Shown here piece by piece: positions 16,524-51,257 of a stretch of DNA of 64,000 nucleotides. This DNA is from a virus. The position numbers were made by a program, and so were the translations under genes. The stretch is taken from positions 7,489 to 71,488 of IMG/VR virus record IMGVR_UViG_3300037088_000682, one strand, 5' to 3'. Below the pieces are notes generated by a model. That model searched no databases. It saw only the letters and a program-made list of their open reading frames with translations, and was not told where the DNA came from. Position 1 is the stretch's first letter. The number at the start of each line of letters is the position of its first letter.

Positions 16524-16897
16524 TATCGTCCAAGAGCCTCGCCAAGATCTGATGACTCTTCACGAGTAGATCGTTGGTCATCTCAGCTTTTGGTACTTGG
16601 CGGTATACTCGGGAAACTAGGAAACCTAGCGAGGACTTCCCTCGTCGATAGAGGACTACTGCAAACCGATTCTCTTCGTCATTGAGGGTTTGGCGACAGA
16701 GCTCCTCTAGCTCCGAGTCAGTCACGCAAGAGCCTCTCGCACTTGCTTTCGAATACACTCCTCAACGGTATTACCGTCTTCAGGTATCCTCCAAAAAGAT
16801 GGGAACCCGGTGTTGTTCCACAGTAGGTACCCAGCTGAATCATCATCAAGCTGCTTGCCTAACTTGGATGCCTCATCCTTTACAATTTCGAGAGCGG

Positions 16898-35214: not shown

Positions 35215-35550
35215 TTAGGAGTTGTTGATTCGGTCAAACCTAGTGGGAGGCTTCCTACCTTCTACTGGTGCTGGGACTGGTGGAGCTTCTACAACTGGCG
35301 CCTCGTCTTCATCCTCGTCTTCATCTTCATCCTCGTCTTCGGTAGAAACAGCCTGAGCTTCATTGATAATAGTAGGAGACCTAACGAATATCGCACAGAA
35401 ACTTTTCCAGCAGACAGTCAGGTGACTTGAAATCGCAATGATGGTTTGGAATATGCAAATAATGAGAACAATGACAATTACTGTAGTGCAAATAGGGCTT
35501 GCAAAGATCCATTTCCAAACTTGACCCATCACGGGGATAGTATACCCCAA
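35215..35550 (-). CDS. membrane protein with acidic tract, C-terminal tag PTRFDRINNS
   Basis: TM helix; (ED)n run; tag at the terminus. Confidence 0.65.
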   Translation of the reverse strand: MGYTIPVMGQVWKWIFASPICTTVIVIVLIICIFQTIIAISSHLTVCWKSFCAIFVRSPTIINEAQAVSTEDEDEDEDEDEDEAPVVEAPPVPAPVEGRKPPTRFDRINNS

Positions 35551-35594: not shown

Positions 35595-37734
35595 ATGAGT
35601 ATGTATAAACTAGAACAAAGAAAAGTCGGTGACCTGATACCGCACCCTCACAACATAACATACTTCGGATACCCTGATCAGGATCCGAGCTTCCCTACCA
35701 TCAGCGAGTCTATCCATAAGAACGGTGTTCGGGAACCACCCATCATCAAGGAAGACGGAACCATCCTCTCGGGCCATATCCGTATCGCCGGATTCATGCT
35801 GTCATTGGCTAAGAATGGCGTAAAGAAGGCCAATATCACAAAGGAACTCATTCAAGTTCAAGTGCACCCAGGATTTGAGAATGAAAAAGAGGAAGTCAAG
35901 TATCTCATTGATGCTAACATCGAGAGAAGGCAGCTTACACTTCAAAAAATAGCTAGTATCTGGGACCTGTTCACTAAGGAGTATGTAAAGCCAAGGTTTG
36001 GTCGCCCAACAAAAGATGAGGTAAGACCTACAACTCCAAAAGAGATGGCTTCTGAATTAGGGATATCTGTCAAGTCAGCAGAGTCTCTACTAATCGTCAA
36101 GAACAGCTTGTTGGTCCCTGACATCGTAAAAGAGAAGGTATTCAGCAAGAAGCTATCCCCACAATTCGTGGCCAAAGCTGTTATCTTTGCAGAGGAAGAG
36201 GCTAAGCGGGAGCAGAGGGAACCAACCCAAGACGACATCCTTCGATACCTTCAGAACCCTCCACCTAAGACGACTTTGGATATCATTCAAGAGGTGTCCA
36301 CAAAGCCTGTTACTAAGAAGCCTGTTGAAAAACCCGCTGCGGTCAAAGAACCTGAACCACCCCCGGTGGTTGTTGAAGCACAACCAGAGCCAAGCTTCGA
36401 AGATGTACTCGTACAACTGGACGAGCCCCCAGATCCACCCGAGGTTGTTGAAGTCAAGGCCGCCGAAACCGAAGTTGTTGAACGACACCAAGGCAGAAGA
36501 GCCCCCTGTTGTTAAACAGGGAGTAATTGATCTCCACACTGAATACCCAATAAGTGCTATCAAAATAGAGCCTAAAAACAAGGATCTATTGGAAAAGCAC
36601 CTTAAAATAGTCCAACCTGTTGCACCCGAAGAGCCTCAAACGTTTGCTGATGTCGCCGATACCTATACGGACACAGCCGGAACCTTTGCTGACACTTCCA
36701 ACACTTTTGAAGTCGAAACCGAAGAGCACTTGGCTGAGGTAGTCAAGATAACTGATGCAAAGGATCGGATCCTCGCCGAGTACATAATGACTGATGCAGG
36801 TAAGGTCAAGTTAGCTACCGCAATAAAGATCGGATTTGATGAGGCTTTAGATATACTACTCGAGAAGTCTATCGAGTACAAACTTGATCACGCCCGCAAA
36901 ACCATCGAGAACCTGCTGGGAGACATCACTCTCAACGATACGATCACTAGGCACCTCCTTGGCCTCCATACACGCTTGGATGCCTTCCTGAAGGCCATTG
37001 AAGCCATCCCCTCTGCGGAGACCATCACCTTACCAGAACCGGCTCCACAAGCCCCTGCACCCTATTACATACCGGAGGATATCACTAGCAAGATTGCTCT
37101 CTGCCAATCCATCTTGAGCGATATCACTGAAGTGGATGACCCGGTACAAGTCCGAGATCTCCTGCTGGATACCATTCAAGAAGCCAAGGGGGCGGTTGAC
37201 CGCCTAACTCAAACTAAACGAACACTCGAGCTGAATGGTCTGTATTGTGTCGATTGTCTCGAGCCCCAGTTCAATACCGTTCATGGTGCTGTCTGCGAGA
37301 ATGGCCACGGAGGTTCCTTAGGAATCACCGAGGCTCTTGCCAAAATTGAAGAGTCCAAGAGGGCTTCTGCTCTAAAACCAGATCCAGAACCCGTTGAGGT
37401 AATCAACCCAGACGAAATTGACATGGGGCCAGAATCGGAAACCGTTCCAGCGACCACTTCCACAACGGAGCTGGATAACGATGAAATAAGCCGACTTCTC
37501 AACGATATTAGCCCAACTACACCTCCGGTAGCCAAGGCTGAACCAGCCCCAAAGCCCAAAAAAGATCCCAAAGCCAAGCCAGTCCCAGTAGTCAAACTAG
37601 AACCTGCTCCCGCACCAGTAGTCAAGGCTGAACCTGAGTCCCCCAAGCCAACTCCAGTGGCAGCGAGTACCGGAACCGGTGATCCAGTCGAGGAACTCCT
37701 CTACGAGTTCATGGACGTACTCAGCGGTGTATAG
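35595..37734 (+). CDS. ParB-like N-terminal domain protein with long Pro/Glu-rich C-terminal region (frameshift near 36483)
   Basis: LIPHPHN...SIHKNGVREP...ILSGH.R...N.ERRQLT plus HTH; composition continues in ORF 36187..37734. Confidence 0.7.
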
Positions 37735-37757
37735 CTACTAGCTCACAATCAGAGAGA

Positions 37758-38975
37758 ATGGCCGCTATCACACGAAACAAGTTCGGGTGGAGGAAGGTTT
37801 TGTCCTTCGCTTCGGACATTCTCCAGAAGATCCCAAGGCGTGGTGATGGCTTATTCACTACAATTATCAAGATTTTAGCGATAGTTGACTCGTACAACGT
37901 TCAAATGAGTAAGGGAAAGTCGACGGCCCTCTTCGACTTCTTCGGAAGCCTTGACCTGGAAGAAGTCACCAATGCTCAGTTTGTCAGCCTATTCTACTCG
38001 ACCGGCTTGAGGAATAACTTCAAGGTTCGGAAGTTTGAGATGGGGGACTACATGGAGATTGTGAAGGCCGAGCATGCCGGGATCGGCACACTCTACTTCG
38101 TTGAGTGGCATTGGGGGAGCCGTCCAGAACCCTCCGCCGATTTCTGGCATACCAAGGGGTTCAACTTTGAAAAGACCCTAGTTGTTCTGTGGAATAGGTT
38201 TCACGGGAGGATCCACCTCGGCCTCACTCAAGACAACAAGAACGGTGAGCTCAAGTCCACCTATTCGGAGATACCAGAACCCACTGACCCATTACTAGGG
38301 AAGACTGCTGTTATCCTTGAATCTTTCAAAGAACAGCACCTCCTATATGTGAAGGACAAGGTACCCAGAACTTACCTGTTCTGTGGGAAACAAGGGATCG
38401 GAAAAACTTGCTTTTGCCTCCGGTTATCCAAGCTCACCGGTGGAAGAACTCTGCGCATTGATGCCTGCGGTATCACCGCGGTTGGAGTCAAGGACTTGGA
38501 CTTTATCATCAATGGGTTGAACCCAAACTTTCTCATCGTTGATGACATAGACCGCGCCCCCGACCTAGAGAAGTCCCTTCCAACCCTGTTTGCCATCCTC
38601 TCAGACTTCAAGTGCAAGCACCCCAACGTCACAGTAGCTCTGACCATCAATGATATTACCAAGCTCGACCCAGCCCTCCTGAGGCCAGGTCGTATTGATG
38701 AGATTATTGAGCTCGAGCCCCCAGATGAGGAAGATCGGGGAGCCATCCTCCAAGGATACTTGACTGAATTCAAGGTTACCCATGAAGTTGACTTGAAGAA
38801 GATTTCTGGGGCTACAGAGGGGCTGACTGCTGCCTATCTTCGAGAGATTGCTCTTCAACTCAGGTATCAGCCGCAGGATATGGTTCTGAAAGTAGTCACT
38901 CGGATGAATGAGTTGGCAAGTGCAAAAGAAGAGAAAAAGGAAGAGACCAAACCCTGTCGCGCTACCCCGGTGTAA
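37758..38975 (+). CDS. AAA+ ATPase
   Basis: Walker A GKQGIGKT; Walker B LIVDDID; SRH TIN...LDPALLRPGRID. Confidence 0.9.
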   Translation: MAAITRNKFGWRKVLSFASDILQKIPRRGDGLFTTIIKILAIVDSYNVQMSKGKSTALFDFFGSLDLEEVTNAQFVSLFYSTGLRNNFKVRKFEMGDYMEIVKAEHAGIGTLYFVEWHWGSRPEPSADFWHTKGFNFEKTLVVLWNRFHGRIHLGLTQDNKNGELKSTYSEIPEPTDPLLGKTAVILESFKEQHLLYVKDKVPRTYLFCGKQGIGKTCFCLRLSKLTGGRTLRIDACGITAVGVKDLDFIINGLNPNFLIVDDIDRAPDLEKSLPTLFAILSDFKCKHPNVTVALTINDITKLDPALLRPGRIDEIIELEPPDEEDRGAILQGYLTEFKVTHEVDLKKISGATEGLTAAYLREIALQLRYQPQDMVLKVVTRMNELASAKEEKKEETKPCRATPV

Positions 38976-38977
38976 TT

Positions 38978-39259
38978 ATGGTCATGACCCCTGAACAGAT
39001 TCGGATTTCTTGCGTGAAGTACGAGCGAATGGTCTCCAACGCCAAGATCACCCCGGAACAGTACCCAACGAATACCAAGCAAAAAGTAGATGTCGTGGAT
39101 TCACTAGCGCACGCTAGGTGGATGTGTGGAGAGATCCTCTCCTTACTCATTCAGGGGAAAGTTGAAAAAGCTGAACGATGGTTGTGCTTTGTCCAAGGGG
39201 TTCTATGGGTGAACGGCATCTGTAGTATCGACGAGATGCGAGACGACAATCGGGGTTAA
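38978..39259 (+). CDS. hypothetical protein
   Basis: H..WM...KA.RWL.FVQG.LW pattern. Confidence 0.65.
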   Translation: MVMTPEQIRISCVKYERMVSNAKITPEQYPTNTKQKVDVVDSLAHARWMCGEILSLLIQGKVEKAERWLCFVQGVLWVNGICSIDEMRDDNRG

Positions 39260-40386
39260 GTAGCAGACACTGTAAATAACTTTCTGCTCTTACCTCTACG
39301 AATTAGGGAAATGTTAGAATGATGCACGTGATATATCTTTGCAAGATGGGTTCCAGGTAAGGGGCTGACTAGTATCTCCTGAACCTCTTGATCTGTAAGT
39401 TTGGTAGCATAGTGGGTTTCACCACGAGGTCTACTTTCAGGGTGCAAACGAGAACCAGAGCGATCCCCACGTGGAACTCGCTCGGGGTGAGTGACAGAAC
39501 TATGTCTACCTTTTCTAGACATGTCCCTCATATTGTCCAACTGAGTCCCCTCAAATAAGTGGTCTGGGTTGGCACAGCTCCTATTATCACACTTGTGGAG
39601 AGCAAACATTCCTGGAAGTAAACACCGTCCTAACTTGGCCTCTAGGACAAGGTTGGTGACATGGCGTACTCTTCTACTAACCCCAATCAACCCATAGCCA
39701 CCATTATTGGAACCGAGACACGTCCAACAAGGGCCTAAGTCAGCGCGTACAATAGGCCCATTGGTGTTCAGGTGCTGAATCAGAACTTCAGTGATTCGCA
39801 ACCCGTGAAACTTAACTGACTGTTCTTTCAATACTTGAAGACCCGGTGCTATCACTAATTGGGGCTCCAGAAGGTGTTTCCAAGTTAGGCCGTTACGGAT
39901 CTTTTGGATGCAACTCTTATTCACCCCAAACTTAGTTGCTAGCCATTGGTAGCTCTCAGAACTAGTACGAATTTCCTGAACCCTATCTACAGTGAGTTTA
40001 GAGTTCGAGTTACCAGATCCACTTCTACTTCGAATCATCTCTTTACAGCATCTACCCTTGGTAACCTTATCTGTCATATTATCACTTGTTGTACCCTCGA
40101 ACAAGTGATTTGGTTCAAGACATGAGGGGTTATCACAACTGTGACATGAGAGCATACCGATCGTAAGCGGCCGTTTCAACTTAGCTTCCAGGATCAGACG
40201 ACTAACTTGATATTGCTTTCTACCGATCATCACCCGATAGCGCTCACCAATATGACTACCGAACTTCTCCAAGCAAGCGCCTAACTCTTGTCGTACAATT
40301 ACATCAATCAAGTTGTGAGTGATCCGATCCGCCAAAGCGCGACCGTGATAAGTCACAATCATATTGTAGGTGTCTTGGATACTCAT
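39256..40386 (-). CDS. HNH homing endonuclease with two tandem HNH+HTH units
   Basis: CHSCDNPSCLEPNHLFEGTTSDNM and LHKCDNRSCANPDHLFEGTQLDNM, each followed by KLT...LA..F/Y.V. Confidence 0.85.
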   Translation of the reverse strand: MSIQDTYNMIVTYHGRALADRITHNLIDVIVRQELGACLEKFGSHIGERYRVMIGRKQYQVSRLILEAKLKRPLTIGMLSCHSCDNPSCLEPNHLFEGTTSDNMTDKVTKGRCCKEMIRSRSGSGNSNSKLTVDRVQEIRTSSESYQWLATKFGVNKSCIQKIRNGLTWKHLLEPQLVIAPGLQVLKEQSVKFHGLRITEVLIQHLNTNGPIVRADLGPCWTCLGSNNGGYGLIGVSRRVRHVTNLVLEAKLGRCLLPGMFALHKCDNRSCANPDHLFEGTQLDNMRDMSRKGRHSSVTHPERVPRGDRSGSRLHPESRPRGETHYATKLTDQEVQEILVSPLPGTHLAKIYHVHHSNISLIRRGKSRKLFTVSAT

Positions 40387-40442
40387 TGACTCTATAGGGG
40401 CTTAGAAAGTACCTAAACCCCTATACCACACTGCTGAATTGA

Positions 40443-41459
40443 CTACAATGCTTCGGTAACAATCACCCAAAAGTCTGAACACAGATTTGTGTTCTTTATG
40501 TAGTCATATGAAGCCCAATAATACCCAGAAAGGGCCCAATCAAAACCCCAGGAGTTTCGCACTAAAAATGCGCCCTTGGAATTCGCCCTGAACGGGTTGA
40601 CCATATTATCATTGTAGCCAACAAGGCACTGCGCATGTCCGCCTTGGAGCTGCTCAGACGAACCAGGAAGGTCTAAGAAGCCCTTGGTGGCCATGTCCTG
40701 AGACATGAAGTAGTCGTAGACCTGGAAGCCGTAGCCAACGAGCAAGCCCGAGGCAATAGAGGCTTTCATTGTCGCTAGGTCACCATCCGTAATCGAGTGA
40801 TAGCTACTAATTTTCTTGGTCGCGGCCGCTGTCCAAAGTGCTGCGGGGGGCTTAACCGTAAACTTGGTGATATCGTATGGCCAGGATGCTTCGTCTGCAC
40901 AACCATACTGAGCCCCAGCTTTGATAGTGTCACGAATAGTTGCCCCACTATCCTCATTGACCGTATTTTCTATTAGTCTAGTAGCGTAATACTCAAACAG
41001 CCTGCTGACTTGGATCAGCTTCGTGGGGGTTGGCGTTGGAGTAGGCGTCGGTGGGGGGGTCGGTGGTGTAGGAGTAGGCGTTGGAGTCGGGGCTGGTGGG
41101 GGTGTAACCGTGGTTAGGTACGAAATAACTCCAGCTGCAGATACTGTAATACCCGATACTGTAACCGTTGCTCCTGCGGCCATCGCCGAGCCAACAATGG
41201 ACTTCTTGGCACCCTTGCTGATCTCATCTGCTTCAACCATCCCGGCGAACATATTAGCTGTGCAAGATCCAAGTTGTCCTTGATCTTCAATCGCACTACA
41301 GCCTGATCTGAGATCAACAGAGGTAGGAGCTGCTGTTAGAAGTCCTTGAGGTAGTTTCACTCGGAATGCTTCATCCCGAGCGTCAAAGGTTTGTTTTCTC
41401 CATCCACCAAGGTGAACTTGGCGAACAGAACCGTCATGGGTATGGTGTGTTCTGAGCAT
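40443..41459 (-). CDS. papain-like cysteine peptidase (C1A) with Pro/Thr-rich insertion
   Basis: VDLR, DQGQLGSCTAN, GGHA, VRNSWG..W..SGY. Confidence 0.88.
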   Translation of the reverse strand: MLRTHHTHDGSVRQVHLGGWRKQTFDARDEAFRVKLPQGLLTAAPTSVDLRSGCSAIEDQGQLGSCTANMFAGMVEADEISKGAKKSIVGSAMAAGATVTVSGITVSAAGVISYLTTVTPPPAPTPTPTPTPPTPPPTPTPTPTPTKLIQVSRLFEYYATRLIENTVNEDSGATIRDTIKAGAQYGCADEASWPYDITKFTVKPPAALWTAAATKKISSYHSITDGDLATMKASIASGLLVGYGFQVYDYFMSQDMATKGFLDLPGSSEQLQGGHAQCLVGYNDNMVNPFRANSKGAFLVRNSWGFDWALSGYYWASYDYIKNTNLCSDFWVIVTEAL

Positions 41460-41558
41460 ACCCTTTAGGGGTCACAAGTGGATTAGTACCTGACTAATCC
41501 TTCATAAAGCTCTAAGGTTAAACTTGCTATTCGATTCAAACTCGAGGATGATGCCCCA

Positions 41559-41804
41559 GTGAATCGCTTTGACCGTATCCTCAGTGAGAGTCACATGCCA
41601 CTTCACTTGAGGTTGGATTGGCAAGCTTGGGGGGACACTAAGTGTGTTGTAGGGGAGCCCGGAGTCAGAGATACACTGCACCCGTGCGAGTTCTTCCAGT
41701 ATGGCCCTGCTACTGGAGATTGTGAATCCGACGGTCACTACATGTGCAAGGAGTGCAAGTGCCTGACACCACTCAAAGCATCTAGTGATCTGGAGTATCT
41801 TTGA
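41559..41804 (+). CDS. small Cys-rich protein with N-terminal NRFDRIL
   Basis: C..DGHYMCKEC; start codon uncertain. Confidence 0.45.
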   Translation: MNRFDRILSESHMPLHLRLDWQAWGDTKCVVGEPGVRDTLHPCEFFQYGPATGDCESDGHYMCKECKCLTPLKASSDLEYL

Positions 41805-42156
41805 AGCTAACCCAACTATATTTTACCCCACGACTATCCAAGAATGCCATCATATCCCGAGCCCCATCCTCATTTGATGAGTGGATGTGAATCATTTCTG
41901 GAGCCTTGTGAAGGAACTTTATCAAGTATCCGCAGGCATCTCGGCCTGTCCCATCACTATCCCCGATGTAGCTACGATGGAGATCAGTGAAGTCATTCAG
42001 GTCATGATCAAGGCTAATCATGTCGAAGCTAACATACTTCGCTAACGCCTCTCTATACTCATCGAGAGTGTAGACATGTATGATTTCGTCTGATGGGTAT
42101 CGATTATCCATCAGCTTGTGACGATTTGTGTCGTCATCTAGAAAAAGAATCCTCAT
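41782..42156 (-). CDS. cyclic-phosphate-processing receiver-like domain protein
   Basis: ILFLDDD, ISLDHDL, TG, IHIHSSN..G..M. Confidence 0.75.
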   Translation of the reverse strand: MRILFLDDDTNRHKLMDNRYPSDEIIHVYTLDEYREALAKYVSFDMISLDHDLNDFTDLHRSYIGDSDGTGRDACGYLIKFLHKAPEMIHIHSSNEDGARDMMAFLDSRGVKYSWVSFKDTPDH

Positions 42157-42233
42157 GAGCCCCACTGTATAAGCAACTGACCCAAAGGGGAACACCAACA
42201 AAACCCCTCTGGGCCAGTTGACAGACTTTTGAA

Positions 42234-42581
42234 TTACCGCTTGCGAGACCGGGAGGGCTTCTTAGCCGGCGAGGCCACTCTGGGGGCCACCGGAGTTCGA
42301 ACTTCCTTCTTCCTATGAGAACGCTTGGGGGCAGGAGGAGCGGCCTCACGACTCGGGGCGAACGGAACTTTGGGGTGCTTCCTGGCCTCACTGACCGATT
42401 CAATACCACTGAGTCTAGAAGAACTGGTCTTGCTCCCCCTCCGCTCTTCCCCTATTAGAGCAGCTATCTGAATGGTCAACCCTATAGGATCCGGAGCTCC
42501 TGAGATACCTCGTTGCCTGTAAATATCAGCGGCTTCTTGGATATCAGTGGCAACTTGTTGCGCTTCTCTACTCAATGGCAT
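42234..42581 (-). CDS. basic hypothetical protein
   Basis: AGGAGG ribosome-binding site; Arg/Lys/Pro-rich tail. Confidence 0.55.
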   Translation of the reverse strand: MPLSREAQQVATDIQEAADIYRQRGISGAPDPIGLTIQIAALIGEERRGSKTSSSRLSGIESVSEARKHPKVPFAPSREAAPPAPKRSHRKKEVRTPVAPRVASPAKKPSRSRKR

Positions 42582-42636
42582 ACTTCCTCCTACTCACTAT
42601 CTGAATAAACGTGAAGCTACACCAGATTAACAGAAT

Positions 42637-43110
42637 TTGCATCAAGTTTTTGCAGAAGTGGCCGAAAGGTGTAATACTTTCCCCGTGGCTTCCCCTCTTT
42701 TTGACCCGAAGAATCGACCAAAGCCAGCTAATACGTTGGCCGAAACCGAATTACTTCGGTTGGAGAAAATCAGGCAGCAAAGCGGGAACGTCGTCATTTC
42801 AGTGGACACCTGCCCGGGATTGTTCCTTTTGGCCTTCAATCTGCTTCTGACTCAAAACAATGGTAATGGAGGCACTTTCGTCAGCTATAAGTTCCCAATA
42901 CCCAAGTACTGGAAGCGCCACGTTTCTAAGATCCACTTACTAATCCCGGCAAAGGGGACTCTTGAACTCAAAAACGGTTCACAAATCGAAAGAGTCCCAT
43001 CTGCAAAGGTTTCAGAGATCTTAGGTAGAATCCAATATGGGTTTGAGCAGGATGGTTTCCAGATAGTCCTAGGAGCTCCCAGTCGTTTCGAAAGAGCTGA
43101 CGTCATCTAG
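42637..43110 (+). CDS. hypothetical protein, C-terminal tag PSRFERADVI
   Basis: Tag at the terminus. Confidence 0.65.
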   Translation: MHQVFAEVAERCNTFPVASPLFDPKNRPKPANTLAETELLRLEKIRQQSGNVVISVDTCPGLFLLAFNLLLTQNNGNGGTFVSYKFPIPKYWKRHVSKIHLLIPAKGTLELKNGSQIERVPSAKVSEILGRIQYGFEQDGFQIVLGAPSRFERADVI

Positions 43111-43626
43111 GCGGAGTTGAGCTCGAACAGCCATTAGAATCTTCCCTAAACGATTGACGCCCGTTCTTGAACAACCCCAACCCCAGTAGGGATCGAAGTC
43201 AGTGTTCTCGATAATGGGTCGCTCACCACTATTGAGCAGGATGGTTTTAATATCCTGATTTTGAGCAAACTTGGAGTGCACCACACAGAACATGACCCAA
43301 TCCTTGAAGTAGTCGATAACATTGGCTTGTCCGCGACCATCATCCACTATAGTGAGAGCCAGCTTGGTAGGTGGTTTGAATGGTCTGTCCCAATCTTCTC
43401 GAAGTGGTTTGGTTTTGTCCCGGCCAAGGGTTGCAGCATCCATGGGGCTCTTTGCCTTATGGATCTGATCGACGAGATCCATCCGATGCGGGAAGAACTT
43501 CCAAGCCTGAAACGGGGCTTCTGAGAACTCCCAGATCCTAGAGCCAAATGTAAGACTGTGTCGTGAAAAGTTGGAAAAACACCCGTAGGGGGTTTCCTTA
43601 GGCCGGTAAAATAGGATGGGTTCCAT
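43069..43626 (-). CDS. NADAR (YbiA-like) family protein
   Basis: YGCFSNF, SE..FQA.KF, KF.QN, L..G...IIE, D.YWG, G.NRLG.ILM.VR. Confidence 0.85.
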   Translation of the reverse strand: MEPILFYRPKETPYGCFSNFSRHSLTFGSRIWEFSEAPFQAWKFFPHRMDLVDQIHKAKSPMDAATLGRDKTKPLREDWDRPFKPPTKLALTIVDDGRGQANVIDYFKDWVMFCVVHSKFAQNQDIKTILLNSGERPIIENTDFDPYWGWGCSRTGVNRLGKILMAVRAQLRLDDVSSFETTGSS

Positions 43627-43688
43627 CTTTCTCACTACACCGAAAGAAAGTTGTTCACTTCTTTGGGTACTTGGGGTATACCACTAAC

Positions 43689-43758
43689 TGTCGGCTCTAG
43701 AGTGGATCTTCGTGTTCCGCCCCCCCCTCAAAGACACGAGGGTCTCCTAGGGCCGTCA
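43689..43758 (+). ncRNA. candidate small hairpin RNA with C-rich loop
   Basis: CGGCUCUAG/CUAGGGCCG and GAUCUUCGUGU/ACACGAGGGUC stems; loop UCCGCCCCCCCCUCAAAG; GGGGTA element about 10 nt upstream. Confidence 0.4.
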
Positions 43759-43811
43759 ATTAATTTTGTCTTCTCAGTGGTCGCATGAACTTTTGATGCG
43801 ATTGACACTGC

Positions 43812-44453
43812 ATGAAGACTTTACTGTTCGCCCTTCTGGTGGCCGGCACCCTCTTTGGCTGCCGAAATGCCTACGAGCCAACCAAACCAGTACCAAGTAC
43901 CCTCTTATCCACAGAGGTTCCGTTGGTTCCGGCAATGTCTTCTGCAGCCCCGGATCTGCTCGCGGCCCCCGCTCTCGAGGTTCACTTCTCCCCAAAGGGT
44001 GGTTGCACAGATTCAGTGGTAGGTTTTATTACTTCAGCCAAAACTGAGGTGCTTGTCCTGGCCTACTCCTTCACATCAAAGCCAATCATAGCGGCTTTGA
44101 TTGCTCAGGCCAGTAAGACCAAACCAATCTTCGATCGGATGGACTTAGGTTCCCCACAGACCCAGCAACTGATTGCTGCGGGTATCCCGGTTCTCATCGA
44201 TAGTAAGCACGCTATTGCCCACAACAAGGTCATCATCGTTGATAGGAAATACCTAGAGACGGGCTCCTTCAACTTCACCCAGCAAGCCGAAACTAGCAAT
44301 GCCGAAAATTGTGTCATCATCCGAAACAGGGTAATGGCTCAAGAGTTTGCGGCGAATTGGCTGTTGCATCAGTCCCATTCCGTTCCACCCTCGGTAGCCG
44401 ATGCCGGGGTGTTCGATGCTGGATTGAAGTCGGCCGAGCATCTAGAACAGTAA
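43812..44453 (+). CDS. phospholipase D-family nuclease (Nuc-like), predicted lipoprotein
   Basis: Lipobox LFGC; FSP, AYSFT, HNKVIIVD...TGSFNFT...NAEN. Confidence 0.85.
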   Translation: MKTLLFALLVAGTLFGCRNAYEPTKPVPSTLLSTEVPLVPAMSSAAPDLLAAPALEVHFSPKGGCTDSVVGFITSAKTEVLVLAYSFTSKPIIAALIAQASKTKPIFDRMDLGSPQTQQLIAAGIPVLIDSKHAIAHNKVIIVDRKYLETGSFNFTQQAETSNAENCVIIRNRVMAQEFAANWLLHQSHSVPPSVADAGVFDAGLKSAEHLEQ

Positions 44454-44495
44454 AAAGTTCTGATTCTTTCCACTGGGTTGGTGTATCATCCGAAG

Positions 44496-44981
44496 ATGCT
44501 TTGTGTAGGACTCTTCGGAACCTGTGACCAGAATCGATGGAGGGATCCATTCATGGCCCGGTACGATGAGTTGGGGATCCCTTACTTCAACCCAATGGTT
44601 GACAACTGGCACGCGGGACTAGTTCCTCTCGAAGCTCAACACCTAGCCGAGGACGAGATCATCATGTTCCCGATTCTTGGCTGGTCATACGCTGAAGGAA
44701 GCCTCTCTGAGATGGGCTTCGGCCCCCTCAAAGCAATGCGTCAGAACATCAACCGTAGCTTCGTCTACCTAATAGAAACAGTCCTCCACGAGAGGCTGAC
44801 AGATCCCGAACGGGGTAAGGCATCCATTCGATCTCGTAAGCTACTACTAGGACACCTCAAAGAACTTGACGCTCCCAACATCTATGTAGTTCAAAATCTA
44901 GAACAAGCTCTTGAAACTACAACCACCCTCTACGACTTACATAAGAAGATGGGTGAGTTGAGGAACACCTCTGCTGGGTAA
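44496..44981 (+). CDS. nucleoside 2-deoxyribosyltransferase-like protein
   Basis: VGLFGTC...WRD...YFNP.V..W...E...SLSE. Confidence 0.6.
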   Translation: MLCVGLFGTCDQNRWRDPFMARYDELGIPYFNPMVDNWHAGLVPLEAQHLAEDEIIMFPILGWSYAEGSLSEMGFGPLKAMRQNINRSFVYLIETVLHERLTDPERGKASIRSRKLLLGHLKELDAPNIYVVQNLEQALETTTTLYDLHKKMGELRNTSAG

Positions 44982-44983
44982 CT

Positions 44984-45349
44984 ATGGCCAAAGCTTCAAT
45001 CTGGTTAGTCTTGTTGACAGAGGGCTCTGGGGACGCCACGGTATCCGATCTGATAAAGAAGGGCTACAGTGTTGGACAGATTGAACCTGGCTCATCTATC
45101 ATCAACAGGGTAAAGGGCAGTGACTCTGCTGTCACCTTGGCTATCTCCGTCAGTTGTCTTGACAAGGATGCAAACCAAGTCGATGAGGATCTCAGAGCTC
45201 TTCTATCCACCAGGAAGACCAATTACCTATTTTACCTAATCAAAATGGGGTCTCAGACTAGGTGGAGCACTGGTAATATAGATGGCAAGGCCAATCAAGT
45301 TCTAACTCGCTCTGAAAGAATCCTCAGCGATGATGACCCAACCGCTTGA
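44984..45349 (+). CDS. hypothetical protein, tag variant TRSERILSDDD
   Basis: Tag near the terminus. Confidence 0.6.
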   Translation: MAKASIWLVLLTEGSGDATVSDLIKKGYSVGQIEPGSSIINRVKGSDSAVTLAISVSCLDKDANQVDEDLRALLSTRKTNYLFYLIKMGSQTRWSTGNIDGKANQVLTRSERILSDDDPTA

Positions 45350-45644
45350 AACAGAAGAGCGGTGCCCTACTTGTACGAGGCCGATGGTTCACAAGAGTGA
45401 ACATCACTTCGTCCCTAGGTGTAGAGGCGGCAAAGAGACCAAGTTCATTTGCTGTGACTGCCACAGAACTATCCATTCTTTATTCTCGAATAAAGAATTG
45501 GAAAGGACTTACAGTACAGTTGAGGCTCTTCTTGGGAACGAGAGATTCAGGAAAGCTATAGAATTTCTCAAGAAGCAAGATCCTAGTCGTAGGTACAAGG
45601 CAATTAGGGCTAGAGATCAGAAGAAGCGTGGTCGTAACGGGTAA
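45330..45644 (+). CDS. small HNH nuclease-like protein
   Basis: CPTC...HHFVP...GG...CCDCHRTIH. Confidence 0.7.
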   Translation: MMTQPLETEERCPTCTRPMVHKSEHHFVPRCRGGKETKFICCDCHRTIHSLFSNKELERTYSTVEALLGNERFRKAIEFLKKQDPSRRYKAIRARDQKKRGRNG

Positions 45645-45665
45645 GCTTCGGTGTAAGTGGGGTGG

Positions 45666-46136
45666 ATGTCTACCCCTATCATCAATAACCCTTATCGAGT
45701 ACTAGCTTCTTACGCTCTCCGTAAACCACCAGAGGTTCTACCTGACTCTGTTATCTTCGAGGCCAGAGCTCGGGCCAAACAAGTCTGTGGATCAGATCCC
45801 CCACTGTTAGGTAAGTTTCTTAGCTTCTACACAGACATTGAGCCTCACATAAAGGTTACAGCTGAAGATGCCGAGCGGGCTGAGAAGCTTCTTCGCTGTA
45901 TTTGGAGAGGTGACCTTGATGAAGCATATGACCCTATCCCAGGTATCTATCAACATTTCAAAGGTGGTACTTACAGAGTACAAGCACTAGCCAAGCTTTT
46001 ACAAGGGCCGAAAGAAGAAATAGCTGTTGTGTATGGGAACGATGAAGAAACCTTTGTTCGTCCTCTAAAGGAATGGGTTGAACTAATCTTGTGGCCCGAT
46101 GGTGAATACCACCCGCGATTCATGAGGGTGAAATGA
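45666..46136 (+). CDS. DUF1653-like domain protein
   Basis: GIYQHFKGGTYRV...VVY...FVRPL.EW...PRF. Confidence 0.65.
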   Translation: MSTPIINNPYRVLASYALRKPPEVLPDSVIFEARARAKQVCGSDPPLLGKFLSFYTDIEPHIKVTAEDAERAEKLLRCIWRGDLDEAYDPIPGIYQHFKGGTYRVQALAKLLQGPKEEIAVVYGNDEETFVRPLKEWVELILWPDGEYHPRFMRVK

Positions 46137-46348
46137 AGTGGTTCGGAGAGAGTTGGGGATCTGTTGTTTGCAGGTCACTACCGGCATCACCTACTCCCGT
46201 TGGTGAGTTGTGTGCTCTATGTGAAGTATCTATCGTTGAGGGTGATCAAGGAATCCTACTCCCGTACTCAAGTGAGGGTGAAAAAGAGACTGAAGAGCCT
46301 TGGCACTTAAAGTGTCTGTCGAAAGCAACTGTTGGGATCCCGTAAACC

Positions 46349-47101
46349 ATGCCTGCTGGCGCCCTGTGGCTACTTCACTATGCGGATGACATAGATCATC
46401 GAATCCAAGCTCGCTCGGATCGGCAGAGGTTTGCTCAGGACAGGAATGTTCTTACCGCTACAATAACTAGACGTGATGGGCAAGTTCTGTTGGAAGTTCA
46501 GCTCATAGATGACACCAACATCACTTTCGATGAGAGTCTGCGCAGAATCTTTGCTCAGAATTCCTACCCGATGTTTGAGTTTAGAGAAGAGGGGAGAAGG
46601 CGGGACTTTCAAACCGAGTACATGGGGCGATTCGCCTTACCGGAGCCCAATCCTGATCCAACCCCTCGAGTACCCCCAGACGTACGGGATAGGATTATCA
46701 GCGAGTACATCAGTACAGCGGAAGGGAGGCGGACTCTGGCCGCTTCAATGGTAGCCCCTCTGCGAAGACCATTGGACTACTCTTCAATAGCCCGGAGAAC
46801 CTTCATGGTCGAGCAATTACCAGATGGGGCCCTCCCAATCTACGACAAGGATCCTCAAGTCAAGTTTGACCCGCCAGCCTGGGTTCAAGCGGGCACTTGG
46901 GTCAAAGAGGGCGATGACTACGCAACTATTCTTGCTTTAGAGTCACCAGAGGGTTTTCCTGTGGTAGAGTATCGATTGTGGCGGGATTACGGGCCTACTC
47001 TGAAATGTGTTGCCAAGTCCTTCTGCGACCGGTGGCTCCCCTCAGAACCACCCGCCGAACCGAGGACTCGATTCCAGAGAATCCTGGACGATGATGACTG
47101 A
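46349..47101 (+). CDS. hypothetical protein with capsid-like segment, C-terminal tag TRFQRILDDDD
   Basis: RDRIISEYISTAEGRRTLAASMVAPLRR.LDY..IARRTFMVEQLPDGALPIYDKDP segment; tag at the terminus. Confidence 0.7.
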   Translation: MPAGALWLLHYADDIDHRIQARSDRQRFAQDRNVLTATITRRDGQVLLEVQLIDDTNITFDESLRRIFAQNSYPMFEFREEGRRRDFQTEYMGRFALPEPNPDPTPRVPPDVRDRIISEYISTAEGRRTLAASMVAPLRRPLDYSSIARRTFMVEQLPDGALPIYDKDPQVKFDPPAWVQAGTWVKEGDDYATILALESPEGFPVVEYRLWRDYGPTLKCVAKSFCDRWLPSEPPAEPRTRFQRILDDDD

Positions 47102-47438
47102 AACTGAAGCGAAGAAAGTAGCAGTCAAAGAGGCCCGTCCTGGTGAGGCCACCCTCAAGGTCATACTCGCACTTGCCAAAGCCACTCAAAACCTAACTGA
47201 GATTGGAGTCAACGCCCTTGATTACGAGGAAGTGCTCTTACTACTCAGTTACGCAAAGGACACCCCGAGCTTCATACTTCATGGAGCTGAGATCACGATT
47301 GACTTAGTCAATCGTGGAGAGCTCAATGTTGTGGTTGGTAAGTCTCAATCACTGGTAATCGTCAAGGACGTTTGGGCGATACTCCATCCAGAAACAGCAA
47401 CAAGGTTCCATAGAATACTGTGGGATGAGGTGATCTGA
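47094..47438 (+). CDS. hypothetical protein, C-terminal tag TRFHRILWDEVI
   Basis: Hybrid of the two tag subtypes. Confidence 0.65.
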   Translation: MTETEAKKVAVKEARPGEATLKVILALAKATQNLTEIGVNALDYEEVLLLLSYAKDTPSFILHGAEITIDLVNRGELNVVVGKSQSLVIVKDVWAILHPETATRFHRILWDEVI

Positions 47439-47798
47439 ATGACCCTCCGTGTATTGATCATTGATGATGTGGCCAGAGCGGGAGCCGCTAGAGTAGTCGA
47501 GTATGCAAGCCGTCCCGAGAACCTCTACGTACCTGGGCCCGGAGCCAAGGTACCAGGATATGACCCTGGTCACGTTCTGCGACTCGGTGAGTACAGGATG
47601 GTCTTCTCGCTAACGAAAGTCCCTAATGGGGAGATTTACCGTCACTTCTCAATGTCTGTCCCTGCTCAAGGCAAGTTCCCACACCCTGCAGCGGTTGAAG
47701 AAGTACTAGGCCTCTTTGGCTTCGTTGGTGGATTGAAGAAATCTCAAGCTGATCTCAACGAAGAAGAAGGTTGTGTTGTAGCCGCCCAACTACTTTAG
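47439..47798 (+). CDS. hypothetical protein
   Basis: 119-aa ORF. Confidence 0.6.
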   Translation: MTLRVLIIDDVARAGAARVVEYASRPENLYVPGPGAKVPGYDPGHVLRLGEYRMVFSLTKVPNGEIYRHFSMSVPAQGKFPHPAAVEEVLGLFGFVGGLKKSQADLNEEEGCVVAAQLL

Positions 47799-48163
47799 AT
47801 CACGTCCTCACGTTCAAATCTAGTTGGAGGGATCTGATCAGGCTTTTCCCTCTTCCGACGTTCAACCTTTGGTTTCGGAGCAGGGCGCCACTTGTCCCGT
47901 ATATCTCCAGACCACCTAGAGGCTTCGACCTTGATGTCCGTCTCTAAGTGGAGATCAACATACTTTACCCCATTAGCTGTCACTCGTATCCTGTGGATAA
48001 CGAACACTGGCATATCATAGGGTGTTGGATTCTCTGGTAATTCTCTACTTATCCAATCAGAACCCCCAAAAACCTTCCCAGAAGGGATTGGGATTATCTT
48101 CTTATCTACAGCGATCCAACTCTCGTCCTTGGGGGCCTTCCAGGGGTCTTTTGTCCTAGGCAT
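47795..48163 (-). CDS. hypothetical protein, C-terminal tag PTRFEREDVI
   Basis: Tag at the terminus; GGTGTA-10nt-ATG. Confidence 0.7.
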   Translation of the reverse strand: MPRTKDPWKAPKDESWIAVDKKIIPIPSGKVFGGSDWISRELPENPTPYDMPVFVIHRIRVTANGVKYVDLHLETDIKVEASRWSGDIRDKWRPAPKPKVERRKREKPDQIPPTRFEREDVI

Positions 48164-48199
48164 GAATCACCTCTACACCGGTGTAAGAGGTGATTCATG
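48161..48199. promoter_or_regulatory. palindromic bidirectional promoter / translation-start element
   Basis: CATGAATCACCTCTACACCGGTGTAAGAGGTGATTCATG is a near-perfect inverted repeat linking two divergent start codons. Confidence 0.65.
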
Positions 48200-49102
48200 C
48201 CAACGTGGCAGATTGAATATCCATCTCACAGACAAGGGATTCGTTCTCGGTATAGCGAGGACGTTAGTCTCATTCGCAATGACCAGTCTTTTGCAAATAT
48301 GGTGGTTACTGAACTAACAGATCGACCAATCATTGTAATCAAGGTCTCATTCCTTGGGGTTGGCCCTAGTGATCCAAGAGTTAGAGAGATAGTTCGATGT
48401 GGGTCTTTTCAGATCCCTCCTAACATATGGTTCCCTCTACAGGTGAGTAGGATAACCCCGGATGAGAATGGTAGGTATCGGGTACGTGGTCGCACCCAGC
48501 ATGCAGCTATAATCGATGATGCAGCTCACTTCATACCTGGAACACCCGTCGGTATCGATCCTGCCACCGGCTTGATAGTACCCAACTCGAACAATCCAAT
48601 TGGATTGATTAGTGAGGAAACCTCACTACTGGAGGATCCCCCTCCTAGGATTCTTCTAGGAATTGATCCAGGCAGCGGATCAGATAGAACAGCGGTAACA
48701 GTCTCCCGCTACCCAGTTCGAACCGAGATGACTGTCATACCCGGCGATGAACCCTCCTCACTCAGTCTTGGGTTTACCATACGCGAAGAGATTGGGATCG
48801 GAGTTTTCAACCCTGAAGCTGTGCGAAGAGTTTCGATGCCCACCTTCGAGCTCCAAGAAAACCCATCCATAAACATTGGAGACATTAGGAGTAGACGGTT
48901 CGATCTAGTTGATCGTGCTCGACAATCCATTCAAGAATCTGAAGATCAGCGTATATTTGATGCTCTAGATGCAGCTGTTGATCAGCCCTTCATTGATCGA
49001 CCCATCAGAGGTTTCCAACAGCCCACTCCAGAACCTGTATATGACGGGCCACGACCCATTAGATTCACACGGATCTTAGAGGACGAGTGGTACCCCCTAT
49101 GA
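48197..49102 (+). CDS. hypothetical protein with capsid-like segments, tag variant IRFTRILEDE
   Basis: PVRTEMTV...GFTIREEIGIGVFNP and PTFELQENPSI...RRFDLVDRA..IQESEDQRIF segments. Confidence 0.7.
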   Translation: MPTWQIEYPSHRQGIRSRYSEDVSLIRNDQSFANMVVTELTDRPIIVIKVSFLGVGPSDPRVREIVRCGSFQIPPNIWFPLQVSRITPDENGRYRVRGRTQHAAIIDDAAHFIPGTPVGIDPATGLIVPNSNNPIGLISEETSLLEDPPPRILLGIDPGSGSDRTAVTVSRYPVRTEMTVIPGDEPSSLSLGFTIREEIGIGVFNPEAVRRVSMPTFELQENPSINIGDIRSRRFDLVDRARQSIQESEDQRIFDALDAAVDQPFIDRPIRGFQQPTPEPVYDGPRPIRFTRILEDEWYPL

Positions 49103-49633
49103 GTTGAAGATAGTCCCCTCAGAAACCTTTTCTTCCATTGTCAAGGCTTCTCTGGCCACCCCAAGGACTCTAACCGCAACAACAGAGGTGGCTGTACGGG
49201 TACCCGTTCGATGAACCCGATGAGTCTTCCCCTTGTGATCGAACGTTCTTTCTGGTAATGAACGTCTCCAAACAGCTATAAGCCTCTGCCCTAGCCCCAT
49301 GACGGTCAAGGAGGAACCTTTGAGTAGCTCCTGGTCAACAGGTTCAATCCCGGGAGCCTCCCCTTCTACGTCCTCTAGAGGGGAACCATCAAGGAACTCC
49401 CCGAGCGAGATCAAACCTATCTCGAGCGAAGGATACTTCCCAGATGGGCCGTTCGGTTTTAGGGATACGTTGATTCTTCCGTTCTCCGCCAAGGCTTCCA
49501 GTGTAAATCCTTGCATGATCTTATGGTCAACAAGCTCCACCTCCCGGTCGAGTCGTTCGAATCTTGAAACTATGGGGCCTTCCGCAGGCTCAATGATGTC
49601 GATGTTGTGGTCAAAGCGAGTTAATTCAGCCAT
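49097..49633 (-). CDS. hypothetical protein with two N-terminal tag-like motifs
   Basis: MAELTRFDH...IVSRFERLDREV. Confidence 0.6.
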   Translation of the reverse strand: MAELTRFDHNIDIIEPAEGPIVSRFERLDREVELVDHKIMQGFTLEALAENGRINVSLKPNGPSGKYPSLEIGLISLGEFLDGSPLEDVEGEAPGIEPVDQELLKGSSLTVMGLGQRLIAVWRRSLPERTFDHKGKTHRVHRTGTRTATSVVAVRVLGVAREALTMEEKVSEGTIFNS

Positions 49634-49645
49634 TGGAGCTCTATA

Positions 49646-50053
49646 ATGTCCGGTCTGTACCTACCGGGAGTTCAAGAAACACTGTCGTGGATCCTTAATC
49701 TGAACGATATGAGATCTGCACACGTTGAGGAATTGAGTTTCGTTTGCTGGGCTAATACTCTAGAGGAATTACAAGATTTCGTCAATCGAGAACAAGTCGA
49801 GTGTTATATGGATGGTAAGTGGGGGAAAACCTTCAGGAAATTCGGCCCACTTGAGTGGTACAACAAACCCTGGGACGTAGGTAACCACTATCTTCAGGCC
49901 CCACCAACCGTAATTATTCATGGGATCCTGGAGTATCGAGCCCCTATCATAGTGAATCTTCCGAGTATCGAAGATCTTGAGCAGCGAGCTAAGTACGAAC
50001 ACCCAGAGAACCCTACTAGGTTTGAACGCATTGCCTTTAATATGGTCAAGTAG
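49646..50053 (+). CDS. hypothetical protein, C-terminal tag PTRFERIAF
   Basis: Tag near the terminus. Confidence 0.65.
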   Translation: MSGLYLPGVQETLSWILNLNDMRSAHVEELSFVCWANTLEELQDFVNREQVECYMDGKWGKTFRKFGPLEWYNKPWDVGNHYLQAPPTVIIHGILEYRAPIIVNLPSIEDLEQRAKYEHPENPTRFERIAFNMVK

Positions 50054-51214
50054 ATGCCACCACCAATTTGGGCAACACTAGGGCAGGCTATCTACCCGAG
50101 GCCCGCCGAAGGGAACATAATCAGCAGGGATTCTGTTGCGATCATCGTTTACATCAGGGATGAAGAAGTGCATCTTAACTCTAGTGGGGTTGTATTTACC
50201 GTAGATACCAGCATATTAGCTCGAGATTGGATGCCAAGTTCAGAAGCAGAGCCCTTTTTACAGTGGGGTATTCCTTCAGGGGTTACTCATATTCTTGGGG
50301 GTCAACCTGAGTTCGTTGGGGTACTTCCTGTTACCCCAGAGTTAGTTCCAATCCAACCTACTGATCCGGTAAGCAATCGTTGGCTTCAAACCGGGGTCAG
50401 GCTCCAACCGTTGGGAGAAGGCCCAGGAGGAGTCATTACTGGGGTGACTGATCGCGGGATTCATATTAGAGACGTTGAGCGTTGGGACACAACTCCCATG
50501 CAACTTGGAACTACCGTACGAGTCTTCACTCCTCTGGAAGTCTTAGAGTTATACCGGCCAGCTCCGCCACCCATGCCATCTTGGTTCGCCGTTGGCTCTA
50601 GGATTGTTCAAAACCACGATCAACGGACTTACATTATTCTCTCATTCAGCCCAGAAACCTACTCCATGAGGGCTACCCTCGAAGACGAGGTAAGCCCAGT
50701 CACTTTCTCTGTCAATGACTTCGCTCGCCACTGGAGACCCGCTAGCTCCATCGTCGAACATCGACCCAATAGCAATAACACCCCGCTTGTTCCAACAAGA
50801 GTTCAGGTTGCTCCGCCTTGGTTAATCCCAGGTACTTTTCTTAGAAAACGAGCTAAACCACCCTACTTGGTGACCGTCACAAGCCTAGATTCAGAGCATT
50901 TTACTGTACGGCTGACTCAAGTGGCAAGCTTGAATCCAATGAAATTGGGTCCTACTTGGGAGGAAACCGAGTACTGTAAAGTAGAAGAGCAGTTTAATCC
51001 AGTTGATTTGGATGGGGTCGCAAGGGCTGAGTACAAGTGCCCGAAGTGCGGGGAACTTGGCGCCAGAGACAAGGCAGCGGAAGAGCGAAGATTGATTGAA
51101 AAGGTACGGGCTTATACCTGCAAGCAAGAGCACACGTGGTACTTCATTGACGGTACCGACTACGACGGCCAGGTAGCGATACCCACTAGATTTGAAAGGG
51201 ATATCGGCATTTAG
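50054..51214 (+). CDS. multi-module hypothetical protein with zinc ribbon, C-terminal tag PTRFERDIGI
   Basis: Four (P)xW...G repeats; CPKC...C..EH; tag at the terminus. Confidence 0.75.
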   Translation: MPPPIWATLGQAIYPRPAEGNIISRDSVAIIVYIRDEEVHLNSSGVVFTVDTSILARDWMPSSEAEPFLQWGIPSGVTHILGGQPEFVGVLPVTPELVPIQPTDPVSNRWLQTGVRLQPLGEGPGGVITGVTDRGIHIRDVERWDTTPMQLGTTVRVFTPLEVLELYRPAPPPMPSWFAVGSRIVQNHDQRTYIILSFSPETYSMRATLEDEVSPVTFSVNDFARHWRPASSIVEHRPNSNNTPLVPTRVQVAPPWLIPGTFLRKRAKPPYLVTVTSLDSEHFTVRLTQVASLNPMKLGPTWEETEYCKVEEQFNPVDLDGVARAEYKCPKCGELGARDKAAEERRLIEKVRAYTCKQEHTWYFIDGTDYDGQVAIPTRFERDIGI

Positions 51215-51257
51215 CAGTGTCTTTTTTTGCGATCTGGTGTAGTGTCCCCGTGAAGTT

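Follow-up and report, generated by a model that had tools for sequence, protein, structure and literature searches.

Why should a giant phage keep pieces of a major capsid protein (MCP) inside proteins encoded outside its head module? The question is raised by a stretch of virus DNA of 64,000 nucleotides, here called the window, which corresponds to bases 7489-71488 of the 71,488-base IMG/VR virus record IMGVR_UViG_3300037088_000682. An original prediction, made from the letters and the open reading frames (ORFs), held that fragments of an HK97-fold MCP are present in three non-structural proteins of the window, and the three peptides in question were located exactly where it had placed them. 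As judged from alignments and profile matches, two of the carriers, prot2 and prot3, belong to a family whose architecture is a ferredoxin-like N-terminal domain, rearranged pieces of a phage-G-type MCP, often a Tudor-like barrel, and a C-terminal tag of the PTRFER type.

Capsid protein pieces in prot2 and prot3

The window phage's own MCP lies off the contig, and the comparisons use the MCP of a related phage, G001, whose complete genome of 512,571 bases with terminal repeats also carries a relative of prot3. The full-length MCP of G001 (289 residues) matches phrog_2522, the 'major head protein' of PHROGs, at E 7.2e-54, and scores 156.6 bits with NF042927, the NCBIfam family capsid_Caudo_2, for which the curated cut-off is 80 bits. 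Its residues 2-282 align with gp27 of phage G (6wkk_A) at E 5.8e-62. The window belongs to a 71-kb fragment of the genome of a giant phage, and the HK97-fold MCP used by its clade is of the phage-G type (gp27, PDB 6wkk). The record was judged to be 14% complete, indicating a phage genome of roughly 500 kb.

The features of the two carriers are as follows; E values, tags and models are discussed below, and pLDDT is the per-residue confidence of the model.

46349-47101, + strand: prot2 (carrier 2), 250 residues; a mosaic of ferredoxin-like N-domain, linker, MCP N-piece, Tudor/SH3-like barrel and C-terminal tag
46349-46564, + strand: ferredoxin-like N-domain of prot2, residues 1-72, beta-alpha-beta-beta-alpha, pLDDT 85-97, homologous to the N-domain of prot3
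46670-46864, + strand: MCP N-piece of prot2, residues 108-172, equivalent to MCP 2-66 (N-arm helices, first strand, E-loop base); found by tblastn, hidden Markov model (HMM) and hhalign
46868-47053, + strand: Tudor/SH3-like beta-barrel of prot2, residues about 174-235, pLDDT 92-98
47060-47098, + strand: C-terminal tag of prot2, ...EPRTRFQRILDDDD, with a predicted helix at residues 241-248
48197-49102, + strand: prot3 (carrier 3), 301 residues; N-domain, conserved middle region, MCP C-piece, MCP M-piece and tag
48701-48832, + strand: MCP C-piece of prot3, about MCP 241-284, C-terminal P-domain strands; found by tblastn, HMM and phrog_2522 (profile 272-314)
48821-48985, + strand: MCP M-piece of prot3, MCP 83-141, E-loop return strand and spine helix; placed after the C-piece, that is, permuted
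49052-49099, + strand: C-terminal tag of prot3, ...RPIRFTRILEDEWYPL, in 8 of 8 family members aligned

The original prediction had assigned 46682-46861 to the N-terminus of an HK97-fold MCP of large phages, and the searches confirmed it. When the window was searched with the G001 MCP by tblastn, MCP 4-66 was found in prot2 at 65% identity (E 3.2e-23), and an HMM of nine MCPs, run against the 871 stop-to-stop ORFs of the contig, returned prot2 at E 3.7e-29. The family profile phrog_2522 matches residues 113-172 of prot2 on profile positions 43-102 (E 1.7e-6). The second claim, that 48710-48976 holds capsid parts in permuted order with the C-terminal part before the central one, was borne out in the same way: tblastn placed MCP 241-284 at 48701-48832 (45% identity, E 1.7e-10) and MCP 83-141 at 48821-48985 (45% identity, E 6.8e-10), the HMM of nine MCPs gave E 6.6e-21 for prot3 with domain values of 1.5e-10 and 9.4e-11, and phrog_2522 matched it in two stretches (E 1.5e-10), profile 272-314 first and then 122-177. 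The prediction had staked itself on there being significant similarity to some capsid protein; for the two main carriers such similarity was found, at E 1e-21 to 1e-29.

Structure and profile comparison had been suggested as a check. hhalign supports the capsid pieces, aligning the N-piece of prot2 with the MCP at 99.8% (E 5.5e-29) and the M-piece of prot3 at 98.2%. The model of prot2 found no match in the PDB by Foldseek at E<=0.001, a search that barely probed the N-piece and so says nothing about its fold. Likewise, a wide structure search with the same model listed no HK97 chain, again with the N-piece barely probed. ESM Atlas returned no usable feature matches; rows for small DUF1653/DUF4222-type proteins were present. 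Pfam gave no family at E<=1 for prot2 or prot3, nor a match to the encapsulin family Linocin_M18.

The AlphaFold2 model of prot2, built from 37 sequences, has a mean pLDDT of 82.6 and consists, in order, of the ferredoxin-like domain, a disordered linker, helices at residues 110-139, a weak stretch, the barrel and the helical tag. The helices at 110-139, which align with the start of the MCP, are confident; residues 140-175 reach a pLDDT of only 55-67, and the order of the HK97 fold suggests that they are the first strand and E-loop base. The ferredoxin-like domain has middling matches to ferredoxin and ACT-like folds (Z about 6), and the barrel is best matched by the DUF1653 chain 3be3_B (Z 6.8, root-mean-square deviation 2.2 over 62 residues) and then by Tudor domains; at Z < 8 these barrel matches denote fold-level likeness only. 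A DUF1653 protein (PF07866, E 5.3e-9) is encoded at 45657-46136, two genes upstream of prot2. This neighbour was considered as the source of the barrel and rejected, there being no sequence relation (hhalign E 0.48) and no Pfam match in prot2.

The monomer model of prot3 is poor (pLDDT 40). It predicts the N-domain and a long helix at residues 228-261, which aligns with the spine-helix region of the MCP and is the sole element predicted in the MCP-like part. The alignment of prot3 has no barrel-like pattern of conserved Trp.

A further observation concerns residues 97-136 of prot3 (window 48485-48604), where a conserved R-G-x5-I-I-D-D-x-A-H-F has some likeness to the Walker-B region in the large terminase (TerL) of the clade. 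hhalign gave E 0.0052 at a probability of 7%, and with a sub-HMM (E 0.026) TerL was the best non-self match of 3404 ORFs. In the reverse search a TerL sub-HMM did not find the prot3 of the window or of G001, and a search for a guessed terminase nuclease motif found nothing. A TerL piece in prot3 may be regarded as a weak lead only. The putative TerL of the clade is encoded in G001 at 415906-417894 (L036:15906-17894, - strand) and matches Pfam TerL_ATPase at E 0.0013, below the cut-off; in many relatives (P0160, P0164 and others), which have about 1100 residues, it contains intein or homing-endonuclease insertions (PF14528, PF14890).

Tests of membership in the capsid family

The carriers were compared with what is expected of a capsid subunit. 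NF042927 scored prot2 at 22.8 bits and prot3 at 34.9 bits against its cut-off of 80 bits and the 156.6 bits of the G001 MCP. A collinear MCP order in one chain was not found: prot2 corresponds to profile 43-102 only, and prot3 to 272-314 followed by 122-177. Furthermore, the A-domain (MCP 150-240) had no match anywhere in the 71-kb contig by profile search, tblastn or HMM. None of these membership tests places prot2 or prot3 among the capsid subunits. The three carriers are not unrelated proteins: two are paralogues, and the third has a marginal helix only.

Paralogy, conservation and selection

The first approximately 70 residues of prot2 and prot3 are homologous (hhalign 94.7%, E 5.8e-8) and their secondary structures match in both models; on this alignment the two proteins are paralogues of one mosaic family. 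The ferredoxin-like domain starts with Met-Pro...Trp in both. The Met-Pro start (46349-46354 and 48197-48208) is nearly invariant: M-P-T-W is present in 8 of 8 prot3 relatives, and Pro2 is kept in at least 90% of 37 prot2-family sequences. The N-terminal proline may have a functional role, which is offered only as a thought.

Seven full-length homologues of prot3 were found (E 2e-147 to 3e-50), and both the pieces and the tag are conserved in their alignment. Orthologues of prot2 occur in G001, G002 and G003/G004, where the gene order of window 44478-52466 is also kept. This order includes three small conserved genes between the carriers, for which no family was found in Pfam, PHROGs or PADLOC:

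47007-47438, + strand: small conserved gene, tagged
47439-47798, + strand: small conserved gene
47795-48163, - strand: small conserved gene, tagged

When 80 IMG/VR loci were fetched with the prot2 alignment, 4 proved to have a full-length prot2 relative, and in 4/4 a carrier of C- and M-pieces (C-M carrier) follows 1-2 kb downstream. Order and strand of the N / C-M gene pair are thus shared by the window and those four loci, that is, by five lineages. In one of the four, on a contig of 407 kb, the prot2 relative is only 35% identical and the pieces of the C-M carrier follow another circular order. A distant prot3 relative in L048 is likewise permuted differently, its pieces being the end of the spine helix, then C, then the start of M.

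Among three lineages, omega for the whole genes was 0.10-0.13 (prot2) and 0.13-0.20 (prot3), and by piece 0.20-0.27 (N), 0.10-0.26 (C) and 0.11-0.17 (M), all of them rough values with the synonymous divergence (dS) near saturation. Both proteins are under purifying selection. The N-piece was additionally compared between 45 mosaics and 17 MCPs. The two consensus sequences are the same at 42 of 66 sites, and the per-site information is correlated (rho 0.81); mean identities are 0.53 between MCPs, 0.46 between mosaics and 0.44 between MCPs and mosaics.

Mosaic forms in related phages

The search with prot2 returned 581 cluster representatives at E<=1e-3, most of which match residues 105-172 only and which include true MCPs. 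Architectures were assigned by rule for the 150 representatives listed, where Fd is the ferredoxin-like domain, N, M, A and C are MCP parts, and NMAC is the full MCP:

Fd+N+tag: 23/150
Fd+N: 13/150
full MCP (NMAC): 7/150
N only, probably mostly cut sequences: 51/150

Fused or reordered mosaics among the same 150 are Fd+N-C-M+tag (P0061), Fd+NM+tag (P0016, P0142), Fd+N-A-M+tag (P0138, P0141), Fd+N-C (P0026, P0111), C-N (P0117) and M-N-AC+tag (P0152). Of the 137 representatives whose N-piece is nearly complete, 43 have a mosaic build. Among phages in culture or in deposited records, the prot2 search found only MCP genes, namely those of phage G, Tunturiibacter phage Tunturi_5 and one uncultured phage of 485 kb.

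Other capsid pieces occur outside the pair. In G001 a piece of the A-domain (MCP 158-238, E 1.8e-15) forms part of a 169-residue protein that has neither N-domain nor tag (462580-463089; L014:1456-1965, - strand), and weaker MCP pieces were found in five more ORFs (E 1e-4 to 0.06), for example 133474-133821, 16081-16656 and 108598-109134. The window itself may contain a fourth piece:

50267-50374, + strand: residues 72-107 of the tagged ORF 50054-51214, resembling MCP about 229-256; weak

The window copy of this piece gave E 0.79, and its orthologues in L045 and L046 gave 4.3e-4 and 4.4e-4 among 5283 ORFs. In another clade (L086, L093, L101; for example L086:6893-7285) the full MCP gene is followed immediately by a 131-residue ORF with an N-arm-like piece only (HMM 36-78, E 5.5e-5).

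No description of capsid-piece mosaic proteins was found in the literature, as judged from listings and abstracts. The phages of PMC12619734 belong to a different lineage, of 200-307 kb, and no account of such mosaics was found there. What the present analysis contributes is that the two carriers are paralogues and that their genes form a conserved N / C-M pair, along with the fused and differently permuted mosaics, the comparison of site constraint, a lower standing for the ParB-like stretch and the probable assembly gap in the ParB-like gene.

The C-terminal tag

The tag reads P-T-R-F-E-R followed by D/E-x-V-I or I-L-x-D-D. As had been predicted, it is borne by two of the three carriers: it stands at the ends of the two strong ones (...RTRFQRILDDDD, ...IRFTRILEDEWYPL) and not on the ParB-like protein. 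Members of the prot2 family have either the tag or a degenerate version of it (W-E-R-L forms). In 18 ORFs of the contig an R-F-x-R motif lies no more than 14 residues from the C-terminus, and the strict form was found in 55 ORFs of G001, mostly between 10 and 290 kb. Tagged ORFs of the window include 22988-25397, 30084-30464, 35215-35550 (-), 42637-43110, 47007-47438, 47795-48163 (-), 49646-50053 and 50054-51214.

A matrix made from the 55 G001 tags picks RRFDLIER, the start of the spine helix, as the best site in the MCP. That the tag is a copy of this site was rejected, because equally high scores are reached by 38% of the 255 untagged ORFs and by 62% of the 2000 shuffled sequences; the tag and the MCP thus show no significant likeness. 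The gene at 49097-49633 (-), which is convergent with prot3 and overlaps its end, encodes a 178-residue protein with 65-69% identity to its relatives; it has two tag-like motifs that are N-terminal, not C-terminal (M-A-E-L-T-R-F-D-H... and ...V-S-R-F-E-R-L-D).

The ParB-like protein

The third protein named in the prediction is encoded upstream of the mosaic genes.

35595-37734, + strand: ParB-like protein (carrier 1); two overlapping ORFs in the window, 35595-36515 and 36187-37734
36757-36828, + strand: 24-residue helix in the ParB-like protein, resembling the MCP N-arm helix; weak

The protein matches the ParB-like families phrog_4715 (E 2.8e-9) and phrog_620 (E 2.8e-7) and 0 Pfam families at E<=1; a pattern scan for close ParB relatives gave none. 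Its orthologues in G001, G002 and G004 are single ORFs of 657-695 residues. DNA nearly identical to the window was found in peat-metagenome contigs of runs X2-X4, from two studies, besides X1, a possible source of the record. All 11 run rows with matching sequence are DNA from peat metagenomes, and no RNA run is listed among them. In X2 and X3 one contig each spans position ~36483, with 42 unaligned letters and 47 letters more than the window, which brings both ORFs into one frame; the contigs of X1 and X4 break there. The apparent frameshift (window 36470-36490) is probably a 47-base gap of this assembly, and the two ORFs are probably one gene.

The helix had been predicted to resemble 46682-46861 of prot2. 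The resemblance itself is present, with 11 of 24 identities and a BLASTP E of 3e-4 that applies to a single comparison only, but within the contig it does not reach significance by profile: the N-piece HMM gave E 0.059, worse than a noise match at 0.038, and the MCP-family HMM E 0.21. The helix is kept in 3 of 4 ParB orthologues, with E 4.3e-4 in G002 and 1.4e-4 in G004 (Z=871), and is deleted in G001. It is probably a real capsid-like helix, though short and unproven.

Neighbourhood of the mosaic genes

Domains encoded near the mosaic genes include thymidine kinase, the ParB-like protein, two AAA+ ATPases, an HNH endonuclease and a papain-type peptidase, and further cREC_REC, NADAR, a PLD-like nuclease and the DUF1653 protein. 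The region is an accessory and nucleotide-metabolism neighbourhood and no head module. The genes for cREC_REC (41782-42201, -), NADAR (43069-43635, -), the PLD-like nuclease (43812-44453) and the papain-family peptidase with a Pro/Thr-rich linker (40443-41459, -) lie just upstream of the mosaic genes and are candidates for counter-defence or accessory functions. A PADLOC scan of 8 proteins found a defence-related family in 0/8 at E<=0.1.

Possible functions of the mosaic pair

The original prediction had offered three roles, decoys for capsid-sensing immunity, assembly modulators or tethers to the procapsid, and the present computations single out none of them. It is tentatively proposed that prot2 and prot3 are capsid-docking or assembly-modulating adaptors and no shell subunits. 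In HK97 shells the A-domain packs round the capsomer axis, at the capsomer centre, and the N-arms, E-loops and P-domains contact other subunits and capsomers and form the inner face, which binds scaffolds or encapsulin cargo peptides. The two mosaic proteins would jointly hold N-arm and P-domain elements and no A-domain, an assignment that follows the order of the HK97 fold and that, of the modelled elements, only the helices support. In the absence of the A-domain, a module of P-domain elements could not build shells, yet it could bind subunits, lattice edges or inner-face ligands. In the proposed mechanism prot2, with its N-piece, would pair with prot3, with its C- and M-pieces. The paired pieces would rebuild a capsid-like P-domain surface that is unable to form shells, and this surface would engage the assembly line through free capsid subunits, procapsid edges, or binders of the inner face such as scaffold or cargo peptide.

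The pieces are complementary and do not overlap, MCP 2-66 being in prot2 and MCP 241-289 and 83-141 in prot3. This complementarity fits a paired N + C-M module, as do the conservation of the gene pair, the existence of fused chains with the same flanking domains, the second permutation, and strand parts that the models do not fold on their own. The site constraints that the N-piece shares with the MCP and the purifying selection count in favour as well. The second circular order, in L048, fits one compact unit. Moreover, the strand-forming MCP-like parts are not confident in the monomer models, in which the other domains are, as would fit the need for a partner. The complex prediction for prot2 103-176 with prot3 166-266 (own alignments) gave a score of 0.00 and a mark of 0.32, which counts neither way.

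Several observations weigh against adaptors of this kind. Each protein has its own N-domain and tag, as paralogues do and halves of one broken gene do not. Builds with the N-piece only are common, Fd+N with or without the tag making up 36 of the 150 listed representatives. The MCP gene of G001 lies at 403.6-404.4 kb and the mosaic pair at 220.8-223.8 kb, about 180 kb apart and outside the head module; the neighbourhood of the pair (thymidine kinase, ParB-like, AAA+, NADAR, cREC_REC, PLD nuclease) is no less suited to a counter-defence or early function. A domain could not be rebuilt from the short pieces that the ParB-like protein and ORF 50054 carry. The N-piece tree (62 rows, 66 columns) leaves 36 of 59 inner forks open, so that one capture and several are indistinguishable, and the omega values are rough. 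Finally, that the two proteins pair, and that they dock to the capsid or to ligands of it, is inferred from sequence.

The possibility was considered that the mosaics are immune decoys, which would display the most conserved MCP surfaces early and thereby soak up or pre-empt capsid-triggered host sensors. Abortive-infection systems are often triggered by capsid proteins, and the mosaics have retained those MCP segments that are most conserved and have stayed MCP-like at the same sites. The genes have NADAR and cREC_REC domains for neighbours in an accessory region, and in G001 they are remote from the head module. The many shuffled architectures are also of a sort often seen in arms-race genes. 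However, selection on the orthologues is purifying, not diversifying, the PADLOC scan yielded no defence-related family in the 8 proteins, and a capsid fragment could trigger a sensor as easily as block one. A decoy role is considered unlikely, though deserving of attention.

Less probable again is a self-contained new domain, in which a scaffold derived from the P-domain, alone or as a heterodimer, would have taken on a job unrelated to the capsid, such as peptide or nucleic-acid binding with the Tudor-like barrel. In its favour, permuted and fused builds have been conserved, the pieces always come joined to additional domains and the neighbourhood is non-structural. Drift away from the MCP would then be expected, yet the MCP-mosaic identity (0.44) is about that between mosaics (0.46).

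The mosaics might instead be weapons against related phages, that is, dominant-negative fragments that would poison the assembly of capsids by co-infecting relatives while the tag or timing spares the phage's own heads. Judged by their content, fragments that lack the A-domain could cap a lattice and not extend it, and phage-G-type MCPs are widespread, a relative being encoded on 580 of the 595 stretches matched in IMG/VR. The pieces, however, are as close to the MCP of their own clade as to any other, and self-poisoning would need to be avoided, so that this explanation is improbable.

For the tag, an analogy with encapsulins was drawn, to which still less credence is given. The PTRFER-type tag could be a ligand of a capsid groove, like the encapsulin cargo-loading peptide, and the mosaics could be soluble versions of the inner N-arm/P-domain grooves of the MCP that hold, sort or compete for tagged proteins, the whole forming a phage-encoded cargo-loading or regulation system for the giant head.

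It is very hard to see true shell subunits here, such as a specialised vertex or minor capsid protein: the significant similarity to the MCP family is set against the missing A-domain, the permuted order, scores of 22.8 and 34.9 bits where 80 are required, and genes outside the head module. Neither chance similarity nor the decay of a duplicated capsid gene is tenable for the two main carriers, because the ParB-like stretch alone falls within the chance range, whereas the carriers have E values of 1e-21 to 1e-29, ORFs intact in five lineages, omega of 0.1-0.27 and conserved flanking domains. The probability beyond these readings is reserved for readings not thought of.

Capsid proteins are usually seen as the bricks of a shell. 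Here a clade that ranks among the largest phages known keeps, under selection, accessory genes made from rearranged capsid parts, other domains and a common tag. If the capsid parts do dock onto the capsid or mimic it, they would represent regulators of assembly, adaptors for cargo or immune decoys of a new class, and might provide handles for loading proteins into giant heads.

Comparison with known systems

The source family of the pieces is that of phage G gp27 (6wkk; phrog_2522; NF042927), and the window pieces are 45-65% identical to the G001 MCP. Unlike gp27, the carriers are partial, lack the A-domain, have the C-terminus before the middle, and are extended by N-terminal and tag modules and, in prot2, a barrel. 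A tblastn search of phage G with prot2 returns gp27 alone.

Capsid-protein paralogues are known as special shell subunits, for example gp24 beside gp23 in phage T4, which are full-length, collinear HK97 folds in the shell. The mosaics resemble this case in being a second capsid-derived gene in one phage genome and differ from it in being fragmentary and permuted.

Encapsulins are small HK97-fold proteins without a delta domain, and their cargo proteins bear C-terminal loading peptides; a control search with phrog_2522 gives a match in Thermotoga maritima. The likeness lies in this small HK97 fold lacking a delta domain and in a short C-terminal peptide common to many unrelated proteins, here the PTRFER-type tag. 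The difference is that no shell-forming paralogue is present here and that the carriers match no Pfam family at E<=1.

Pathogenicity-island satellites encode capsid-redirecting proteins that bind or mimic the capsid or scaffold proteins of a helper phage. An accessory action on assembly through capsid-like or scaffold-like surfaces, as proposed for the mosaics, would be common to both; the satellite proteins act on a helper, whereas the mosaics are encoded by the phage and made from pieces of its own MCP.

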